NCBI RefSeq assembly: GCF_000284115.1
Contig: NC_017080.1
Span: forward strand, 300,001-332,000
Source of the DNA: Phycisphaera mikurensis NBRC 102666
GTDB taxonomy: Bacteria; Planctomycetota; Phycisphaerae; Phycisphaerales; Phycisphaeraceae
Length of the DNA: 32,000 bases
Direction of reading: 5' to 3'
Shown here: positions 1,296 to 9,616 of the stretch, piece by piece
How the letters are laid out: every line of letters starts with the position of its first letter
How positions within the stretch are numbered: the stretch's first letter is position 1
Translations under genes and position numbers: made by a program
The notes under the pieces: model-generated
What the model was told of the DNA's origin: nothing
Seen by the model: only the letters and a program-made list of their open reading frames with translations
Database searches by the model: none

Positions 1296-2540
1296 TCACC
1301 GCGGCTGGATCGCCGCCCGCTGCGGGTCGTACCGCACCTCGCCCAGCGTGCCCGCGATCAGCCGCTCCACCGCTTCCTCGATCAACGGGAGCGGGACCAG
1401 GAACCACTCGCGGGGCTCGACAGCCGAGCCGAAGCGGTCCTGGAGCTGCACGTCCAGCCGGGCCTCGGCGAAGAAGCCGTGCAGCAGGTGCTCGAGCTTG
1501 TGGCGGTGCAGGTTCGCCAGCTCCCATCCGGCGACCTGCTCCACGCCGGCCAGCAGGAACGTCGGGTCCTTGGCGGCGTTCGCCAGCCGCTTCTTCACGT
1601 CCCCGCCCGTGACCCCGATCTTGTGGAGCACCTCCCGGTGCTCCGCCACGAAGGGGTCGCTCGAGAGGCTGCGGACCACGTACACGCGGCCGCTGGCGAC
1701 GTCCCCGTCCGCGGCCTCGCCCGAGAGCACCGCCCCCCCCGGACCCCGCTCCTTGACGAACAGCGGCCCCGCATCGTCGTCGCGCGGCAGGATCCGCCGG
1801 CTCGCGTCGTCCTTGTTGAGCGCCCGCCGCAGCGAGCGCATCAGGAGGTCCGACTCGGTCGCGTTGTCGAACACCACGCGCAGCCGCCGGTCGTTCTCGC
1901 CGTGCTCGGCCTTGAAGACCGACCCCGCCGAAGCCACGCAGGCCTTGTGCCCGTCGAGGACGAACCAGTCGCCCACCGCGATCCCCTCCTCGTCGCGCCC
2001 GTCCTTGCGGAAGCGGGCGGTCCGCCGCTCGCCGGCGTCGAGCTCCGCCTGCACCGCGGCGAAGGCCCCCGCAAAAGCCCGCTCGAAATCCGCGCACGGC
2101 TTCCGCTTCGCCACCTCCTCGGGGCTCCTCCGCTCGGCGGCGAGGCGGACGTGCCGCATCGTGGAGACGTCGTCGGCTCCGCCGACGCCGAGCTCGTCGA
2201 GCGCTTGCTCGTCGGAGAGCCCGTCGGCCGCGCCGCCGCCCGCGGCATCCGGCCCCAGCAGCCCTCCGGCGTCCAGCGGCCCCAGCAACGCCCGGCACGC
2301 CGGCAGGCTCCGCATGCGGTCCAGCCGCACCGCGTAGAGCCGCTCGAAGATGTCGCGGTCGGCCCCGTGCCGCGGGGCCCGGCCGTGCTCGGCGGCGAAG
2401 CGCTGCACCTCCTCGAAGCCGGCGAGCATCCGCTCCTCCTCGGCCGTGTAGGCGCGTTCGGGCTCGGGCTCCGCGGAGACCCCCAGCTCCGCGAGCATCG
2501 CCGCGTCGTCATCGGTGAAGCCGGCGTCAGGCGGTGGCAC
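1296..2540 (-). CDS. GIY-YIG/T5orf172-domain nuclease-family protein with a roughly 270-aa N-terminal region of unknown function
   Basis: The C-terminal roughly 120 aa match the T5orf172/MUG113 pattern (GRVYVVRS..., HKIGVTGGDVKKRL, KLEHLLHGFF, PREWFLVPL). A GTG start at 2540 overlaps the helicase stop (2527-2529) by 14 nt. An alternative ATG lies at 2498. Confidence 0.7.
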   Translation of the reverse strand: MPPPDAGFTDDDAAMLAELGVSAEPEPERAYTAEEERMLAGFEEVQRFAAEHGRAPRHGADRDIFERLYAVRLDRMRSLPACRALLGPLDAGGLLGPDAAGGGAADGLSDEQALDELGVGGADDVSTMRHVRLAAERRSPEEVAKRKPCADFERAFAGAFAAVQAELDAGERRTARFRKDGRDEEGIAVGDWFVLDGHKACVASAGSVFKAEHGENDRRLRVVFDNATESDLLMRSLRRALNKDDASRRILPRDDDAGPLFVKERGPGGAVLSGEAADGDVASGRVYVVRSLSSDPFVAEHREVLHKIGVTGGDVKKRLANAAKDPTFLLAGVEQVAGWELANLHRHKLEHLLHGFFAEARLDVQLQDRFGSAVEPREWFLVPLPLIEEAVERLIAGTLGEVRYDPQRAAIQPR

Positions 2541-4515
2541 GGGCTCTCTCCCTCTGCAGCCGCGCCATGAACGCCACGCCCTCGGCCATCCGCCGCTCCC
2601 ACGGGTCCGGTGAGGTCGCCGACGGCGGCACGCCCCGCTGCTTCTTGAACGCGACCGCCCGCTGCATCAGCGCACGCGCCTCCTCCTCCGAGAGCGAGCT
2701 CTTCTTCGCCGTGATCGCCGCTTTCACCCGCGTGAGCGTCCCCTCGTTGAGGCTCTTGGCGAGCACCTCGTAGGCCTGCCGGAAGGGGTTGATGGCGTCC
2801 ACCAGGTCGATGTCCAGGTCCTTCACGTCCACCGCCAGCTTGCGGAGGCCGTCGATCAGCGCCGTGTTCGGCGTCTCTTCGCCGCTCGCTTCTCCAGCCG
2901 CCTGCCGCCCCCGCCGCTTGCCCTCCTGCAGCAGGTTCAGCGCCGCCACCGCCTGCTGCCGCACCGCCTCCTGGTCTCCCGCGTCCAGCTGCGGGTAGCG
3001 CTCGCGGACGATCTTGCCCTGCCGCAGCTGCGTGATCTCCTCGGGCACCAGCTCCTCGTCGAACATCCCGCGCTCCACGCTCTCTCTGTCCTGCACGAAG
3101 GCGGCGATCAGCTCGTGCACGTCCTCCCGGCACACCCGCTTGGCCTCCTTGGAGGCCGGCTCCTTGAGCCCGGCGATCTCAATCTGCACCGCCCCGGTGG
3201 TCGGGTCCACGCCGATGTTGTTGCCGCCCTCCGCGTAGCCGCGCTCGCCGTAATCCAGCCCGTCCACCGGCCCGCTGTTCTTGGGCCTGAACTCGAACTT
3301 CGGCGCCAGCACCTGCTCCATCAGCAGGCTCGCCGCGATCGCCTTGAGCGTGTCGTTGACCGCCTCGATCACCGCCACCTCGCTGGCGTCGGGCTCGGCG
3401 ATCAGGTTCGTGAAGCGGGCGCGGGCCTTGCCGGGGGCGTCGCGGGTGGCCCGCCCGATGATCTGCACCACCTCGGTCAGGCTCGCCCGGTACCCGATCG
3501 TCAGCACGTGCTCGCACCAGATCCAGTCGAAGCCCTCCTTGGCCATGCCCAGGGCGATGATGAGGTCCACGAAGTCGCGGTCTCGGATCCGCTCGCTCGC
3601 CAACGCCGCCGCCACGCGGTTGCGTCTGGCGGGGTCGTCGTCCACCAGGTCGGCCACGCGAAGCACCCGCCCGTCCGGCCGCTTCATGAGCAGGAAGCCG
3701 GTCGCGGGGTCGACGCCGTCGAATTCGCCCAGCTCCGAGAGGATGTGCTCCACCTCCTTGACCTTGTCGCCCATCGATTCCCGCGCGTTCACGTTGGGGA
3801 TGTGGACGATCGTCTTCTTGTCCGGGTCCAGCACCGCCGCCACGTCGTCCGCGTAGCGGCCGGTGTAGAAGCAGAACCCGATGTCCAGGTGCTTCAGGTG
3901 CGTGTACCCGGCGAGCTGCTCGTGGTACGTGTAGGTGACCGTTTCGAACCTCGCCTCATCCTCGGGCGTCAGCACCGCCGCCGCGTCCCCCCGGAAGTAA
4001 GAGCCCGTCATCGCGACGAGGTGGGCCTCGTCGCGCTCGATCAACGCCCGGACCTGCTCGCCCAGCCGGTTGTCCGGGCTCGCCGAGACGTGGTGGAACT
4101 CGTCCACCGCCACCAGCCGCCCGTCCAGCGCCTCCACCCCCAGCTTGTCGACCGCGAAGCGGAACGTCGCGTGCGTGCACACCAGCACCCGGTCCTCGCT
4201 GGCGAGGAACGCCCCGAACGCGTCGACCTTGCCCCCGCTGTCCTCCGGCCCCGGCGCGTCGCACAGGTTCCACCGCGGCCGCACCTCCCAGTCCGCGAAG
4301 AACCCATGCGCGGACAGCGGGACGGAGCCGAACGACGCCCCGATGTCCCGCGTGGGCACCAGCACGATCGCCTGCTTGAGCCCCTGCCGGTGCAGCTTGT
4401 CGAGCGCGACGAACATGAGCGCCCGGCTCTTGCCGCTGGCCGGCGGGCTCTTGATCAGGAGGTACGGCTCCCCGCGCCGCTGCCACACCTTCTCCTGCAT
4501 CGGCCGCATCCCCAT
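2527..4515 (-). CDS. SF2 DEAD/DEAH-box (Res/HsdR-like) helicase-ATPase with a roughly 250-aa C-terminal extension
   Basis: Walker A is SPPASGKS, motif II is VAVDEFHH and motif VI is QIIGRATR. I place the start at ATG 4515 (MGMRPMQEKVW...). The longer ORF reaching 4776 would run into the divergent gene and has no helicase-like sequence. Confidence 0.85.
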   Translation of the reverse strand: MGMRPMQEKVWQRRGEPYLLIKSPPASGKSRALMFVALDKLHRQGLKQAIVLVPTRDIGASFGSVPLSAHGFFADWEVRPRWNLCDAPGPEDSGGKVDAFGAFLASEDRVLVCTHATFRFAVDKLGVEALDGRLVAVDEFHHVSASPDNRLGEQVRALIERDEAHLVAMTGSYFRGDAAAVLTPEDEARFETVTYTYHEQLAGYTHLKHLDIGFCFYTGRYADDVAAVLDPDKKTIVHIPNVNARESMGDKVKEVEHILSELGEFDGVDPATGFLLMKRPDGRVLRVADLVDDDPARRNRVAAALASERIRDRDFVDLIIALGMAKEGFDWIWCEHVLTIGYRASLTEVVQIIGRATRDAPGKARARFTNLIAEPDASEVAVIEAVNDTLKAIAASLLMEQVLAPKFEFRPKNSGPVDGLDYGERGYAEGGNNIGVDPTTGAVQIEIAGLKEPASKEAKRVCREDVHELIAAFVQDRESVERGMFDEELVPEEITQLRQGKIVRERYPQLDAGDQEAVRQQAVAALNLLQEGKRRGRQAAGEASGEETPNTALIDGLRKLAVDVKDLDIDLVDAINPFRQAYEVLAKSLNEGTLTRVKAAITAKKSSLSEEEARALMQRAVAFKKQRGVPPSATSPDPWERRMAEGVAFMARLQRERARATA

Positions 4516-4657
4516 CGCGTTGGCCGCGGTCGTGGCCCCCGTGGCGGGGAAGGCGACGGAGACGGCGGGTTCGGGGTTTCGCGGGCTGATCAGATGAGCG
4601 TACCGACCGCTGTCAGGCGCCGGTCTCCACGGATCGGTAATAGATCGGACGTGATCC

Positions 4658-4686
4658 TTGACACGTCGGTCGGGCGATGTCAGGAT
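4658..4686 (+). promoter_or_regulatory. Putative sigma-70-type promoter (TTGACA, 17-nt spacer, CAGGAT) for the unknown/XRE-ImmA operon
   Basis: There is a perfect -35 hexamer at 4658-4663, a 17-nt spacer and a weak -10 at 4681-4686. The ATG at 4694 lies about 7 nt after the -10, which would imply a leaderless or near-leaderless mRNA. Confidence 0.3.
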
Positions 4687-4693
4687 CCTCTTC

Positions 4694-5410
4694 ATGGACC
4701 CGTTCGACCACCGCGATCCCCAACAAGTCCTCGAGACACTCGGCCCCACCGCCCCGATCGTGCTCCGCGAGGCCATGGACGCCGGCCTTCATCGCTACCG
4801 CTTCAGTCGTGAGAGGGATCCCGATGCGGCTCCTGACTACAGCGACGCGACGAGGGCGAACATGCTGGTCGACCGGATGTACCCGGTGATGTCCGCGCTG
4901 GTGGCGGTCGCCGATCCCGAAGGCCGGCACCTGTGCACCCACCGCACCGCCAACCAGCGGGCGTTGGAGCTCTACAGCGGCTTGTTCCTCATGGCGAAGC
5001 TCAAGAGGACCAAGGACCGGCTCCGGCAAGCCGATCCCGGCGAATTCCCGGAGCTGGAGGACGACGTGGACGTCGAACTCTTCGATCCCGGCATGCCGCA
5101 GAACGTGCCGACCGGCCGCGTGCTCCGGCAGCGGACACCCGGTGGCTTCCACGCCTACCGTCAGCTCCCGCTGGGCAACGTGCCGCCGGCGAGCATCCCC
5201 GACGACGGCCGCGACCGGCTCTGTCTGATCGCCGGCTTCGACCTGGACCTCGCCGAGGACCAGATCGAGCGGCCCCGGCTCGGGCTCTACGGCAGACGTG
5301 AGCCGATCTGGACCGTTCCGCTCCCAGAGTTGCCGGTCGACGCCATTGCAGCAATCCACCCCGCTTTGGCCGATCGGGTCGGTGAGCTGCGGCGCATGCG
5401 CGGCGCCTGA
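4694..5410 (+). CDS. Hypothetical protein (238 aa, no recognisable domain), first gene of the XRE-ImmA module
   Basis: The ORF has GC-rich third codon positions. It ends 21 nt before the same-strand XRE-ImmA gene. I saw no motif I can assign. The TTG at 4658 is an alternative start. Confidence 0.5.
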   Translation: MDPFDHRDPQQVLETLGPTAPIVLREAMDAGLHRYRFSRERDPDAAPDYSDATRANMLVDRMYPVMSALVAVADPEGRHLCTHRTANQRALELYSGLFLMAKLKRTKDRLRQADPGEFPELEDDVDVELFDPGMPQNVPTGRVLRQRTPGGFHAYRQLPLGNVPPASIPDDGRDRLCLIAGFDLDLAEDQIERPRLGLYGRREPIWTVPLPELPVDAIAAIHPALADRVGELRRMRGA

Positions 5411-5431
5411 CGCACCCCCGCCCCCGCGATC

Positions 5432-6598
5432 ATGAGCCCGCGTTCCCAAGGCCAGACCCCGGCGAGTCCCGGTCTCTCACCTGACGAGATGGAAGGCTTC
5501 AGCGGCTTCAACCCCGCCATGCTCACCGCTGCGCGGGAGGCGCAGCGCCTCACGCAGACGGCGCTGGCCCGTCTCCTCGGCGTGAGCCAGCCGCTGGTCG
5601 CCCGCTGGGAGGCCGCCGGGCACACCGAGGCGGGTGATCGGGAGCCGGACCTCGTCCAGCGGCGGGCGCTCGCCGAGGCGTTGCGGGTCCACCCCCGCCT
5701 CTTCGCCCAGCCCGGCAGCGCCGCCCGGGCCAGCGAGAGCGAGTACTTCCACCGAGCCTTCGCCAAAGCGCGTCGGACCGACGTGAAGGCCGCGCACGCC
5801 CGCTGCGGCCTCATCGAGCTGCAGGCCGACCGCCTGCTCGACCTTGAGGGAGCCCCCGAGGACCGGATCCCCGAGATCGACCCCGAGAACCACGCCGGCG
5901 ACGCCGAGAAGATCGCCGGCTGGGCCCGCACCCGCATGGGCCTGGCCCCCGGCCCGGTCGACAACCTCGTCCGGACCGTCGAGGACTGCGGCGGCCTGGT
6001 GATCGACCACGACCTGGAGATCGACAACGTCGACGCCCTGTGCCACTGGCGGCCCGGCCTCCCGAAGCTCTTCTTCCTGAACGGCAACCGGCCCGGCGAC
6101 CGGATGCGGCTGAGCCTCGCGCACGAGCTGGGCCACACCGTCATGCACCTGGGCCGCGACACGGAGTTGAAGCTGGCCGAGGAGCAGGCGCAGCGTTTCG
6201 CCGCTGCCTTCCTCCTGCCCTCCGCCGACTTCCGGCCGGACCTCACCTTCCGGCTGGACCTCTCGCGGCTGATGACGCTCAAGCGGAAGTGGCGGGTGTC
6301 GATGCAGGCGATCGCGTACCGAGCCCACCAGCTCGGCGCCATCGACCAGACCCGCTTCCGCTCGCTCTTCCAGCAGATCTCCCGCAAGGGCTGGCGGAAG
6401 ACCGAGCCGGTCGAGGTCCGGCGGGAGTCGCCGATGGCCTTCAAGCGGCTGCTGCGCGCCCACGTGGACGCCGGCTTCACCCGCGAGGATCTCGCCATGC
6501 TGCTGCTCGTGCCCCCGGCCCGGGTGGACGAGATGCTCGTGGACGCCTCCTCGCCCGACTGGGAGGATGGCGGCGTCCGGTTGCGGCTAGCACGCTGA
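5432..6598 (+). CDS. Fused XRE-family HTH regulator / ImmA-IrrE (M78, COG2856) zinc metallopeptidase
   Basis: The N-terminus has an HTH (LTQTALARLLGVSQPLVARWE). The central region has an HEXXH zinc motif (LAHELGHTVMH) followed by an AAAFLLP segment typical of ImmA/IrrE. Confidence 0.85.
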   Translation: MSPRSQGQTPASPGLSPDEMEGFSGFNPAMLTAAREAQRLTQTALARLLGVSQPLVARWEAAGHTEAGDREPDLVQRRALAEALRVHPRLFAQPGSAARASESEYFHRAFAKARRTDVKAAHARCGLIELQADRLLDLEGAPEDRIPEIDPENHAGDAEKIAGWARTRMGLAPGPVDNLVRTVEDCGGLVIDHDLEIDNVDALCHWRPGLPKLFFLNGNRPGDRMRLSLAHELGHTVMHLGRDTELKLAEEQAQRFAAAFLLPSADFRPDLTFRLDLSRLMTLKRKWRVSMQAIAYRAHQLGAIDQTRFRSLFQQISRKGWRKTEPVEVRRESPMAFKRLLRAHVDAGFTREDLAMLLLVPPARVDEMLVDASSPDWEDGGVRLRLAR

Positions 6599-6688
6599 AG
6601 CGCCGCGGACTGACGGCCCTGTGGGCGGAAAACGACGACGGTCCGCGGGATCGGATCACCTTCCAAGCCGATCCGGAGGCTTGAACCG

Positions 6689-6818
6689 TAGGGCAGGCTG
6701 GCCAGCCTGCCATTGTGCCCGGAGGGCACAAGCGTGGACGTGGTCCGGCCCGCGGCAAGGTCCGGCACTCGACGCTGCCGCCCCTTCGGGGCGGCACGGC
6801 AGGCAGGCCTGCCTGGCC
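6689..6818 (+). repeat. REP-like structured intergenic repeat, copy B
   Basis: It contains a perfect 20-nt palindrome GGCAGGCTGGCCAGCCTGCC (6692-6711), a hairpin TGCCGCCC/GGGCGGCA (6776-6796) and the palindrome CAGGCAGGCCTGCCTG (6800-6815). It matches copy A at 561-665. Confidence 0.6.
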
Positions 6819-9616
6819 TACGGGTTGGATTCCGCGGCGGTCATCTCGGTGTAGCGGGCGAAGAGGTGTTCGAGGCGTTCGGTGTCGTTGCGGAAGCGGC
6901 GGCCGAGGTAGATGCGTTCGAGGGTTTCGTCGTTGCGGTCGTGGGCTTGGCGGAGGTCGGGGTAGTCGCGGTCCATGGCCTCGGGGTCGTACATCTGCGC
7001 AATCGTCGCGGGCCAGTGGGCCTCGCGGGCGAGCAGGATGGCCTCGGCGCAAGCCGTGAGGTCGGCCTTGTTCTGCTCCGTCAGCTCGGGGACGGGGAAG
7101 GTGTTCCAGCCGAGGTCGTTCGAGTAGCGGTAGTCGATCTTGAACTTGCCTCCAATTGCTGCGACCCAGGCCAGGTGAAGGCGTGAATTGATGACGCTCA
7201 GCGCCCACGTTCCCGCGTCATGCAGCGCAAATGCTTGGCTGGAGACGACCGTCTTGGCGGGCAAGATTCCCGCGGGGATGTACTGCCTCTTCTCTGATGT
7301 ACTGATGGGAACGATGATGGTAGATTCCGTGGACGATACATGTTCGCGCATTTGGTGTGGACGCTTGGCGAGCTGCCGGTTGGAAGAGTCCTTGAACGCG
7401 AGCCGCTTCTTTCTGCAGAGCTCAATCCGTGATCCGATAGCTGAGCATGTGAGAGCATCCTCGAGATCAGCGTCGTCTACCCAGATCGAGTAGTTGACCA
7501 CGCCGCCATTGAACTCGTCCGATCCGTAGAAAGGACGCAGAAAGCCGTCGGCTGCGGCGTCTGCACTTATCACTTCGCGGCGGGATGCTGCGCTCACCCG
7601 CAGCGCTCTTCCATCGTTCGGCTTGTTGCCGAGAATCATCGTCGGAAGATCACTAGAAAGAGTATCGCTCCGGGCCGTGACTAATGGCGCATCGCCCGCG
7701 GTGAGATAGTGAGAGATCGCTTCGACGTGCCTTTCCTCGTCGTTATTGTAGAGGATGCACGGCGTGTCATCGTTGCTCGCAAGCCCCACGATGACGACGC
7801 TGACTGCGGCATTTCTGGCAGCCATGTTCGACCACCAGAAGCTCTCGTAAGCAAAATGAATCTTGACACCTTCGGCGAGCACGGCAGGCCACAGGTCGGC
7901 AGCTTGCCGTCCCATTACGACGGAGTTGGTTGAGACCAATGCAGCTGCCGAATCAACTCTGCGGCAGTAATCGGACGCCTTGATGAACCAAGCTCCGACT
8001 AGATCGATATAGCCAAAGTTTCGGATGCGGCCTTGGAAGATATTCCGAAGATCCTCGCGGTTGCTCGCGGAGAGCTTGCCCTTGCCCAGATACGGCGGAT
8101 TCCCGCAGATGTACGTCTCCCCGCCCTCGTTCTCGAAGTCGATCTCCCCGCCCTCGGCCCGCGACAGCAGGTCGGTCGGCGAAGCCGACGCCTCCTGCCC
8201 GCTCGGCGGGCAGACGCGCTGCCAGTCCAGCCGCAGCGCGTTCCCGTGGACGATCCAGTTCTCCTTGCCCAGGGGCAGGAAGTCGGCGAGGGCGAGCAGC
8301 TGGCCGCGGTGGAGGACGTCGGCCTGGTACTCGGCGATGATCAGCGCGAGGCGGGCGACCTCGGCGGCGAAGTGGCGGATCTCGATGCCGCGGAAGTTCG
8401 TGAGTGGGATCTCGCTTTGGCGCTCGGCTTCGCCGAGGTTTTCGTTGATCTTCGCCTCGATCTCGCGGAGCTGCTTGTAGGCGATGACGAGGAAGTTGCC
8501 GCTGCCGCAGGCGGGGTCGAAGACGCGGATCCGCGACAGCCGCTTGCGGAGCCACCGCAGCGCCTGCGGCCGGACCTTCGGCTCGGTCGCGTCCTTCAGC
8601 TTTTCGCGGAGCGAATCCAAAAAGAGCGGGTTGAGCACCTTCAGGATGTTGGGCACGCTGGTGTAGTGCATGCCCAGCCGGGCCCGGTCCTCCTCGCCGG
8701 CGACGGCCTGGATCATCGAGCCGAAGATGTCCGGGTTGATCTTGGTCCAGTCCAGCCCGCCGATGTGCAGGAGGTAGCTGCGGGCGGTCTGGCCGAAGCG
8801 GGGCACGGAGTCGGGGTCGCCGCCGCCGGCGAACAGGCCGCCGTTCACGTACGGGAAGCCCATGGCGTACGGCCGGACGCCGGCGGCCCGGCGGGCCTCG
8901 GCGTCCAGCGGAGAGTCCATCGCGAGGAAGCAGTTCGCCAGCACCTCGTGCACGTTGGAGCCGTCCCGCTCGCTCAGGGTGCGGACGGCGCCGGTGAACT
9001 GGTCGTCGCCGAAGATGCGGGTGTCCTCGGCGAAGAAGCAGAAGATCAGGCGGGCCATGAAGTGGTTCATGTCCTCGCGGCGGGCTTCCTCGCCCCAGTC
9101 GGGGTTCTCGCGCAGCAGCTCGACGTAGAGCTTGTTCAGCCGCCCGGTGGCCTTCACGTCGAAGGCGTTCTCGCGGATCGCCGGCACCGTGCGGATGCCC
9201 GCGAGCTCCAGGAAGAAGCCAAATCGCTCCGGCAGCTCCGCGAGCGGGCAGGCCAGGGTCTCGCCCGCGCCGTCCGGCGTGAGGCTTTCCGCTTCGACCG
9301 TCTCGCCGTCGGTGGCGAGCACGAACTTGCAGTTGCGCTTGGCCGTCTCGGGCGAGTCCAGCAGCTCCTGAAGCTTCTCCGCCGTCTCCCACGGCGCAGC
9401 CGTTGCGAGGTGGATGTTCTTGGTCTGCAGCACGCCGCCGGGCACGTCGCTGCGGTTGGTGGAGCTCTTGCCGCCGGCCCGCAGCCGGTCGATCGTGGTC
9501 CGCGGGTTGCCGAAGGCCTCCAGGAACTCGAACGGGAACGCCTCCGCGTCGAACCCCTCCGCGGCGATCCGCTCCACCAGCTGCTCGACGGCTTCCTCGA
9601 TCTCGACGGCGTTCAT
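6818..9616 (-). CDS. MmeI-family (Type IIL/IIG-like) N6-adenine DNA methyltransferase with TRD; N-terminal nuclease motif apparently degenerate
   Basis: It is collinear with my recollection of MmeI over the full length: LIFCFFAEDTRIF, FPYVNGGLF, LDWTKINPDIFGSMIQ, LGMHYTSVPNILKVLNPLFLD, VFDPACGSGNFLV (motif I), ICGNPPYLGKGK (motif IV), and C-terminal YRYSNDLGWNTFP and MYDPEAM. I place the start at ATG 9616 (932 aa); the upstream extension to 9895 overlaps glbO. Confidence 0.9.
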   Translation of the reverse strand: MNAVEIEEAVEQLVERIAAEGFDAEAFPFEFLEAFGNPRTTIDRLRAGGKSSTNRSDVPGGVLQTKNIHLATAAPWETAEKLQELLDSPETAKRNCKFVLATDGETVEAESLTPDGAGETLACPLAELPERFGFFLELAGIRTVPAIRENAFDVKATGRLNKLYVELLRENPDWGEEARREDMNHFMARLIFCFFAEDTRIFGDDQFTGAVRTLSERDGSNVHEVLANCFLAMDSPLDAEARRAAGVRPYAMGFPYVNGGLFAGGGDPDSVPRFGQTARSYLLHIGGLDWTKINPDIFGSMIQAVAGEEDRARLGMHYTSVPNILKVLNPLFLDSLREKLKDATEPKVRPQALRWLRKRLSRIRVFDPACGSGNFLVIAYKQLREIEAKINENLGEAERQSEIPLTNFRGIEIRHFAAEVARLALIIAEYQADVLHRGQLLALADFLPLGKENWIVHGNALRLDWQRVCPPSGQEASASPTDLLSRAEGGEIDFENEGGETYICGNPPYLGKGKLSASNREDLRNIFQGRIRNFGYIDLVGAWFIKASDYCRRVDSAAALVSTNSVVMGRQAADLWPAVLAEGVKIHFAYESFWWSNMAARNAAVSVVIVGLASNDDTPCILYNNDEERHVEAISHYLTAGDAPLVTARSDTLSSDLPTMILGNKPNDGRALRVSAASRREVISADAAADGFLRPFYGSDEFNGGVVNYSIWVDDADLEDALTCSAIGSRIELCRKKRLAFKDSSNRQLAKRPHQMREHVSSTESTIIVPISTSEKRQYIPAGILPAKTVVSSQAFALHDAGTWALSVINSRLHLAWVAAIGGKFKIDYRYSNDLGWNTFPVPELTEQNKADLTACAEAILLAREAHWPATIAQMYDPEAMDRDYPDLRQAHDRNDETLERIYLGRRFRNDTERLEHLFARYTEMTAAESNP

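Follow-up and report, generated by a model that had tools for sequence, protein, structure and literature searches.

MmeI homologues have been divided into two groups, one with a PD-ExK motif (D70/E80/K82) and a second without it that is always flanked by a DEAD helicase gene and a GIY-YIG gene (Morgan 2009, PMC2731913). The same study found no endonuclease activity for YeeA alone and proposed a model with a Type-I-like architecture, in which the MmeI-like subunit confers specificity, modifies a single strand and serves as the docking platform for a helicase and a nuclease that are separate subunits. YeeA of Bacillus subtilis, also named DnmA, methylates GACGmAG (Nye 2020, PMC7261158), the synteny survey has been repeated (Fernandez 2023, PMC9973331), and Vibrio crassostreae became sensitive again to a clade of phages when yeeAB was inactivated (Piel 2021, bioRxiv 10.1101/2021.05.05.442762). 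No newer system name for the YeeABC trio was found in the literature. Here we analyzed a stretch of 32,000 nucleotides of the planctomycete Phycisphaera mikurensis NBRC 102666 (NC_017080.1, positions 300,001 to 332,000), referred to as the window, in which an island between rmlC and glbO encodes relatives of all three proteins together with an inserted pair of genes. Taken as a whole, the locus is probably best described as a YeeABC restriction-modification (RM) system that carries a RosmerTA-type insert.

An earlier note on this DNA, made from the sequence alone, had proposed a split RM-like unit composed of a methyltransferase (MTase) with a target recognition domain (TRD), a helicase and a GIY-YIG protein. 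This unit is supported by the linkage of the genes in 74 of 74 informative loci and by the lack of a PD-ExK motif, but it is not new, since it was published in 2009. The three genes are yeeA(dnmA), yeeB and yeeC of the published trio and thus come close to belonging to an already named system, although PADLOC contains no YeeB or YeeC models. With respect to the trio, the P. mikurensis locus is a clean, full-length, high-GC example and adds nothing conceptually new. New from our survey are a recurrent cargo slot between yeeA and yeeB and a rare partner protein of RmrA.

The YeeABC trio and its genomic linkage

The MTase, helicase and T5orf172 protein of the island are almost certainly members of the YeeA(DnmA)-YeeB-YeeC family, and this membership is secure because YeeB and YeeC are homologous to their published counterparts over their full length, the alignment of the MTase to MmeI begins only at residue 98 and no D..ExK motif is conserved in the N-terminal domain of 60 aligned YeeA orthologues. 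For direct comparison with the window proteins, the published YeeB and YeeC sequences were taken from Fig. S5 of Fernandez 2023. With YeeB of V. crassostreae and B. subtilis the helicase of the window shares 44-46% identity along its entire length (E about 1e-178), while the YeeC-like protein is 30-34% identical, also over its full length, to YeeC of B. subtilis and V. crassostreae (E 1e-42 to 1e-52).

Linkage was surveyed in 82 loci (80 recovered from one-genome-per-species contigs by a helicase profile as well as L001 and L002), which were searched with the window's proteins. A full MmeI-like MTase, 50-56% identical to that of the window, was encoded upstream on the same strand in 74 of these loci. 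In the other eight the contig extends less than 2.2 kb beyond the helicase gene on its upstream side, so that linkage was observed in every informative locus. The order was always yeeA, yeeB, yeeC on one strand, and the T5orf172 gene followed the helicase gene in every locus that extended far enough. The projected junction between yeeB and yeeC measured -70 to +4 nucleotides in 78 of 80 loci, a spacing suggestive of translational coupling. The association of the helicase/T5orf172 pair with MmeI-like MTases that the earlier note had postulated was thereby observed in many phyla.

At least 8000 helicase relatives are present in the databases, as returned by both searches performed, and they span Planctomycetota, Verrucomicrobiota, Acidobacteriota, Proteobacteria, Cyanobacteria, Firmicutes, Chloroflexi and Bacteroidota. 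YeeB proteins from different phyla are 65-72% (about 67%) identical to that of the window, and such values are indicative of a horizontally mobile gene under strong constraint. Homologues were found on 230 plasmids, 118 of them conjugative, and were nearly absent from phages. Annotated examples include an integrative and conjugative element of Pseudomonas aeruginosa and a Burkholderia multivorans locus, in both of which a gene for an MmeI-like protein of about 922 residues, with or without one additional gene, the helicase gene and the T5orf172 gene lie on one strand, as well as a conjugative IncF/IncHI1B plasmid of Klebsiella. In P. aeruginosa (L001:5879-6079) and B. multivorans (L002:6977-7177) the MTase gene is preceded by a small HTH_17 gene of the AlpA/excisionase type. 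The encoded protein may be a controller of the system in other hosts; in the window there is no room for such a gene between yeeA and glbO.

All five Pfam MmeI domains were detected in the YeeA-type protein (among them MmeI_Mtase, E 5e-102; MmeI_TRD, 4e-66; MmeI_N, 8e-30), and its DPACGSGNF and NPPY motifs are intact. Alignment to MmeI (5HR4) by phmmer (E 5e-116) revealed that the helical spacer, MTase, TRD and C-terminal domains are collinear, and together with the Pfam matches this bears out the MmeI-like order of N-domain, spacer, MTase, TRD and C-terminal domain described in the earlier note. Residues conserved at the N-terminus of the 60 YeeA orthologues include NAVEIE, FGNK.TT.KRLR, SD..GGVLQ and ATDG; the absence of PD-ExK was judged from these orthologues, as no alignment of the YeeA-type protein with the N-terminus of MmeI was obtained. 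Mean pairwise identity among YeeA orthologues was 0.43 in the TRD compared to 0.69-0.85 in the other domains. The GC content of the TRD-coding segment is 0.58, compared to 0.65 for the whole of yeeA and 0.72 for the window, a difference that suggests recent acquisition of the TRD by recombination from a lower-GC donor. A hypervariable, low-GC TRD is as expected for specificity swapping in an active recognition system. The PADLOC model REase_MTase_IIG (PDLC03598) matched the YeeA-type protein end to end (E 4e-255). Because of this match, and because models for YeeB and YeeC are lacking, automated pipelines would label the protein as a stand-alone Type IIG enzyme, which according to the literature is incorrect, and would miss its helicase and GIY-YIG partners.

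The window helicase, a member of superfamily 2 (SF2), carries the motifs PPASGKS, VDEFHH, MTGS and QIIGRATR, and YeeB orthologues show no variation in motifs I, II, III and VI. The motifs quoted for the MTase and the helicase in the earlier note (DPACGSGNF, NPPY, GKS, DEFH and QIIGRATR) could all be located, and its domain assignments were recovered by PADLOC and Pfam, which matched the MmeI domains and T5orf172/MUG113 as well as, weakly, DEAD/ResIII, with ResIII below cut-off. YeeB begins almost directly at the region of the RecA-like motif I and thus has no nuclease domain of its own. Many YeeB homologues (e.g. P0087, H2 and H4) bear the name "pseudomurein-binding repeat-containing protein" or have a precomputed match to PF09373 in their helical C-terminal region; on a cytoplasmic SF2 helicase of Proteobacteria this label is probably a misannotation.

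The database protein corresponding to the window helicase (P0001, 660 aa, NCBI) matches the open reading frame (ORF) from about position 4509-4515. Upstream of this annotated start (4509-4776) the frame continues with a peptide that YeeB orthologues have conserved (..SV.Y...G.S...N..GMR.MQ), and the start-codon scan found no canonical start codon for the extended frame before ATG 4695, which shares a CATG palindrome with ATG 4694 of the divergently oriented neighbouring gene. Translation of yeeB may in fact begin at a non-canonical codon (CTG 4593 or ATC 4590) within the intergenic region 4516-4693; alternatively, the insertion may have clipped the N-terminus. No sigma-70-type promoter consensus was detected in 4516-4693, a scan that is uninformative for a planctomycete.

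Pfam matches to MUG113 (6e-12) and T5orf172 (4e-09) were found at residues 297-393 of the YeeC-like protein. Residues Y287, K307, R318 and E378 are invariant in 26 YeeC sequences, and by analogy with the T5orf172 protein Gp88 of ICP1 we assign Y287, R318 and E378 as putative GIY-YIG catalytic positions. The start of yeeC, which according to the earlier note overlaps the helicase stop, does so if GTG 2540 is used, the start favoured by orthologue alignments, but not if translation begins at M15 (2498), the next Met in frame and the presumed first residue of NCBI protein P0131 (400 aa).

These residues bear on whether YeeABC cleaves DNA at all. T5orf172 was originally described as a DNA-binding domain, and a BREX-like defence could be envisaged in which YeeB remodels unmodified DNA or blocks its replication while T5orf172 serves as a DNA-binding module. 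Consistent with this, PglX and DrmMI have domains in common with YeeA, genomes of Bacillus phages show no depletion of the DnmA motif, and the second (YIG) motif published for YeeC-type proteins carries a K (Gx(I/V)Y-YK(I/V)G), the window protein having HKIG with an H before the K. On the other hand, Tyr, Arg and Glu are invariant at the assigned catalytic positions, nuclease activity has been demonstrated for ICP1 Gp88/Odn (PMC8263062), and partners of the PglZ, BrxC/BrxL or DrmA/DrmB type are missing. We therefore regard a defence without cleavage as unlikely.

The U238-RmrA insert and the slot between yeeA and yeeB

As the earlier note had stated, exactly five accessory genes, all intact, are located between rmlC and glbO according to the ORF list and Pfam. 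Its view of their content was correct in number but not in regard to XRE and ImmA as separate entities: these are parts of one fused protein of 388 residues, and the fifth gene encodes a protein of 238 residues, U238. The 388-aa protein combines a helix-turn-helix (HTH) domain (Pfam HTH_3, 1e-08) with Peptidase_M78 (2e-16, residues 189-298), contains the HELGH motif and was matched by 14 PADLOC models of RmrA, the best with E 5e-58 over positions 2-336 of 363. RmrA is the antitoxin of RosmerTA, composed of an HTH domain and an ImmA-type peptidase, and is accompanied by diverse RmrT toxins of unknown function (Millman 2022; Ernits 2023, PMC10440598). The U238 gene lies upstream of the rmrA-like gene on the same strand with a gap of 21 nucleotides. 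U238 had no match in Pfam, PADLOC or NCBIfam, and no transmembrane segment was found in it. Only 10 homologues were present among 5.8 billion proteins, while a search with a U238 profile recovered 26 proteins, the weaker ones partial, from 1.8 billion cluster representatives, a library that carries no annotation and thus offered no functional lead.

An RmrA-like gene, or its remnant, adjoins the U238 homologue in every context recovered. In L084 and L085 the U238-RmrA pair is found within a YeeABC locus at the same place and in the same orientation as in the window, whereas in L087 it is located outside YeeABC, beside an Eco57I-like MTase and a phospholipase D (PLD)-family gene. Because it occurs both inside and outside of YeeABC loci, the pair represents a portable two-gene module. 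Judged by its domains and models, it is probably a toxin-antitoxin or defence module of the RosmerTA type.

The earlier note had instead regarded the XRE-ImmA protein as a switch embedded in the system. In such a case the XRE-M78 protein would sense stress or infection, in the manner of CapH/CapP or ImmR/ImmA, and control yeeBC from the divergent promoter region. The module does adjoin yeeB in divergent orientation in the window, L084/L085 and L086, three arrangements in which YeeB is only 65-71% identical, and the 388-aa protein has a match to CapP. This match (E 1e-14) is, however, weaker than that to the RmrA models by about 40 orders of magnitude, the latter being nearly full length, and the pair also exists away from YeeABC genes (L087). 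Furthermore, an XRE-M78 gene occupies the position between yeeA and yeeB in none of the 74 surveyed loci, 28 of which have no insert, and the same slot holds unrelated cargo elsewhere. With its dedicated partner gene, the module is more likely RosmerTA-like cargo, and a dedicated switch appears improbable.

Examination of the junction between yeeA and yeeB revealed that the two genes abut in 28 of 74 loci, while 0.5-4.4 kb of extra genes were present in the remaining 46 (e.g. L054:7950-9826, L041:8178-9926 and L060:8895-9917; in the window the slot spans 4516-6817). In contrast, the yeeB-yeeC junction was never interrupted in the survey. The cargo included members of the RhuM family (seven loci), AlbA_2/HATPase_c_4 proteins (five loci), YhcG/DUF1016 PDDEXK nucleases (three loci), a GmrSD_N/HEC-05-like protein, a complete Septu pair (PtuA, E 9e-79; PtuB, 5e-43) and Uma2 (one locus each), toxin-antitoxin-like pairs of the PIN, YafQ/RelB and DUF3368 types (several loci) as well as recurrent families without any match (137, about 290, about 344, about 264 and 277 aa; several loci). 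Around dnmA, only "uncharacterized" families had been mentioned previously (Fernandez 2023, PMC9973331). In the metagenomic locus L084 (8001-14021) the slot measures approximately 6 kb and contains a U244/RmrA pair, an unknown protein of 246 aa, AlbA_2, a RhuM fragment and a SocA_Panacea-domain protein. This stacking of cargo suggests serial insertion at the same junction.

A proposed mechanism and the evidence that bears on it

We propose that YeeABC would act as a horizontally mobile, three-protein RM system that is Type-I-like or resembles a split Type ISP system. YeeA, with its N-domain devoid of PD-ExK, would read a short asymmetric site through the TRD and methylate one adenine on one strand. 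This step has a basis in relatives, as B. subtilis DnmA (GACGmAG) performs site-specific N6-methyladenine modification and MmeI-family enzymes protect their host by modification of a single strand. When bound to its site on unmethylated foreign DNA, YeeA would recruit or license YeeB as an SF2 ATP-dependent translocase, and YeeC, translationally coupled to YeeB, would cut the DNA via its T5orf172/GIY-YIG domain. A methylation-dependent defence against phages or plasmids is likely, whereas ATP-driven translocation combined with GIY-YIG cleavage, deduced from motifs and domains, is put forward more tentatively as a possible mechanism.

A number of observations weigh against a YeeABC RM system with a RosmerTA-type insert. 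Neither YeeB nor YeeC has a meaningful relative in the PDB by sequence or profile searches. The predicted YeeC model (predicted local distance difference test, pLDDT, 81) yielded only insignificant Foldseek matches in the PDB, to small beta-barrels of the eIF5A/EF-P type; because no GIY-YIG structure was recovered, the assignment of YeeC as a nuclease rests on Pfam clan membership and motifs. Regarding the insert, U238 matched no RmrT model, and its AlphaFold model (pLDDT 57) was too poor for a fold search. In L086 (1924-3202) an intact U238 homologue (U243) is found in a YeeABC locus beside an RmrA that is reduced to its N-terminal part, aligning to residues 22-180 of the window protein and ending ahead of the M78 match, which speaks mildly against a potent toxin.

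The remaining points concern the activity of the trio as a whole. In B. subtilis, transformation was not restricted (Nye 2020, PMC7261158), three Bacillus phages were not blocked and the locus was called a relic (Fernandez 2023, PMC9973331), DnmA being read by the authors as an orphan regulatory MTase. The DnmA of Streptococcus mutans has been interpreted in the same manner. In the window, yeeB-yeeC is separated from yeeA by the opposite-strand insert and the start of yeeB is ambiguous. All of this would fit a locus in which only the MTase functions, as an orphan epigenetic regulator, and yeeB and yeeC are decaying passengers. Several features of the window locus argue against such decay: the three ORFs are intact with all conserved catalytic motifs, and the third-codon-position GC of yeeA, yeeB and yeeC (0.85-0.96) is like that of the flanking housekeeping genes. 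Across phyla, the conservation of YeeB points to strong purifying selection and recent transfer, and cargo in the yeeA-yeeB gap is the normal state in 46 of 74 loci. In addition, the B. subtilis proteins, which lack C-terminal stretches in both YeeB and YeeC (Fernandez 2023, PMC9973331), are atypically shortened. A relic is accordingly an explanation to which we give little weight.

Going further, YeeABC could constitute an unclassified RM type, consisting of a hemimethylating MmeI-like specificity/MTase subunit, a stand-alone SF2 translocase and a T5orf172 nuclease, and its yeeA-yeeB junction may have evolved into a docking slot dedicated to other defence and toxin-antitoxin modules. In the window this slot would be taken by a new, very rare RosmerTA toxin family, largely confined to YeeABC loci and perhaps cooperating with YeeABC. 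We consider this extended version rather doubtful. A specialist in RM systems would recognise the trio, and the remaining value of the locus lies in the mechanism, the gap in the model sets, and the cargo slot with the rare RmrA partner. YeeABC is extremely widespread, yet its helicase and nuclease are without a solved structure, and neither these two proteins nor U238 are covered by a model in PADLOC or NCBIfam. The published phenotypes are contradictory, with protection in V. crassostreae and none in B. subtilis. The slot between yeeA and yeeB could be mined for new defence genes, U238 being one such candidate.

Features of the window and comparison with known systems

The features of the island and its immediate surroundings are listed in Table 1. 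For the helicase, the T5orf172 protein and U238, NCBI contains P. mikurensis entries of 100% identity.

Table 1. Features of the P. mikurensis locus in window coordinates, mapped by ORF listing, codon-position GC and Pfam
Feature	Position	Strand	Basis or remark
rmlC, 181 aa	696-1241	+	Pfam dTDP_sugar_isom, E 4e-63; flanking housekeeping gene
yeeC-like T5orf172/MUG113 (GIY-YIG superfamily) gene, 414 aa	1296-2540	-	Pfam, YeeC homology
yeeB-like SF2 helicase/translocase gene, about 661 aa from annotated start	2527-4515	-	ORF open to 4776
Intergenic region between yeeB and inserted module, divergent	4516-4693		Presumed promoters for both genes; sequence and start-codon scan
U238, 238-aa protein without family match, candidate toxin partner (RmrT-like) of XRE-M78 protein	4694-5410	+	
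rmrA-like gene, fused XRE HTH and M78 (ImmA/IrrE) zinc peptidase, 388 aa	5432-6598	+	PADLOC, Pfam, HELGH
Palindromic element of 34 nucleotides, convergent rmrA/yeeA junction	6790-6823	+	Second copy at 636-669
yeeA/dnmA-like gene, MmeI-family gamma-class N6-adenine MTase with TRD, 932 aa	6818-9616	-	PD-ExK-less subgroup
TRD-coding segment of yeeA	7082-7690	-	Hypervariable among orthologues; low GC
glbO (truncated haemoglobin), 125 aa	9665-10042	+	Pfam Bac_globin; flanking housekeeping gene
rsfS, 164 aa	10070-10564	-	

The remaining genes of the window are of the housekeeping type; among them are purD and genes for anthranilate synthase, dCTP deaminase, class II ribonucleotide reductase and a sigma factor. 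No tRNA gene adjoining the island was found, Pfam scans of the window's larger ORFs turned up no integrase domain, and no convincing direct repeats flank the island ends. A GC-rich palindromic element of 34 nucleotides (GGCGGCACGGCAGGCA..TGCCTGCC..) is present in two copies in the window that are 88% identical, with none expected by chance. One copy is located upstream of rmlC and thus outside the island, while the other overlaps the yeeA stop; the element may be a terminator or a host element similar to repetitive extragenic palindromes (REP-like).

Comparison with BREX and DISARM revealed similarity only at the level of the MTase, which shares distant MmeI-like MTase/TRD domains with PglX (weak) and DrmMI (E 2e-33, C-terminal half). 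PglX models scored 17-31 bits compared to NCBIfam cut-offs of 400-900, and no PglZ, BrxC or BrxL was detected in the window. Likewise, the helicase matched no Drm model, and DrmA, DrmB (DUF1998) and DrmC (PLD) were not found. The statement of the earlier note that hallmark genes of BREX and DISARM are absent thus applies to the island as well as to the rest of the window. Helicase-methylase-ATPase (Hma) systems were set aside as no Hma model matched.

With MmeI and other Type IIL enzymes the window MTase shares the collinear domains and the expected methylation of a single strand. It differs in its first approximately 100 residues, which do not align and contain no conserved D-X9-ExK, as well as in its obligatory linkage to helicase and GIY-YIG genes, and it was therefore not classified as a stand-alone Type IIL/IIG enzyme. 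Type ISP enzymes (LlaGI and LlaBIII) possess the same set of activities, a nuclease, an SF2 translocase, a gamma-class MTase and a TRD for an asymmetric site. In these enzymes, however, all are combined in one chain with an Mrr/PD-ExK domain, whereas the window encodes three chains with a domain of the GIY-YIG superfamily, and no solved helicase is detectably related to YeeB in sequence. An assignment to Type ISP was rejected on account of the three separate genes and the missing Mrr/PD-ExK domain.

Separate subunits, an ATP-dependent motor and cargo such as RhuM are features in common with Type I systems (HsdM/S/R), and restriction probably requires the MTase subunit in both. More generally, the cargo of the slot resembles the embedded genes of Type I RM and BREX loci. 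In contrast to Type I, YeeABC has no HsdS, its specificity resides in the MTase chain, its motor lacks a fused PD-ExK domain, and its site is probably asymmetric and hemimethylated. Type I was rejected since no HsdS/Methylase_S gene was present, the ResIII match did not reach its threshold and the PADLOC MTase_I match was marginal.

The inserted pair is similar to RosmerTA in that an antitoxin-type XRE HTH and M78 protein is paired with an adjacent protein of no known function. It deviates from RosmerTA in its partner, since the candidate toxin U238, outside the reach of the RmrT models, is soluble and belongs to a very rare family. The closest counterparts of the locus are the YeeABC systems of B. 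subtilis and V. crassostreae, with which it shares the three proteins, their order, their motifs, the MTase without PD-ExK and the proposed mechanism. Compared to these, the P. mikurensis locus is distinguished by a planctomycete host with about 72% GC, by YeeB and YeeC of full length where those of B. subtilis are shortened, and by an operon that is split by a RosmerTA-like insert on the opposite strand.

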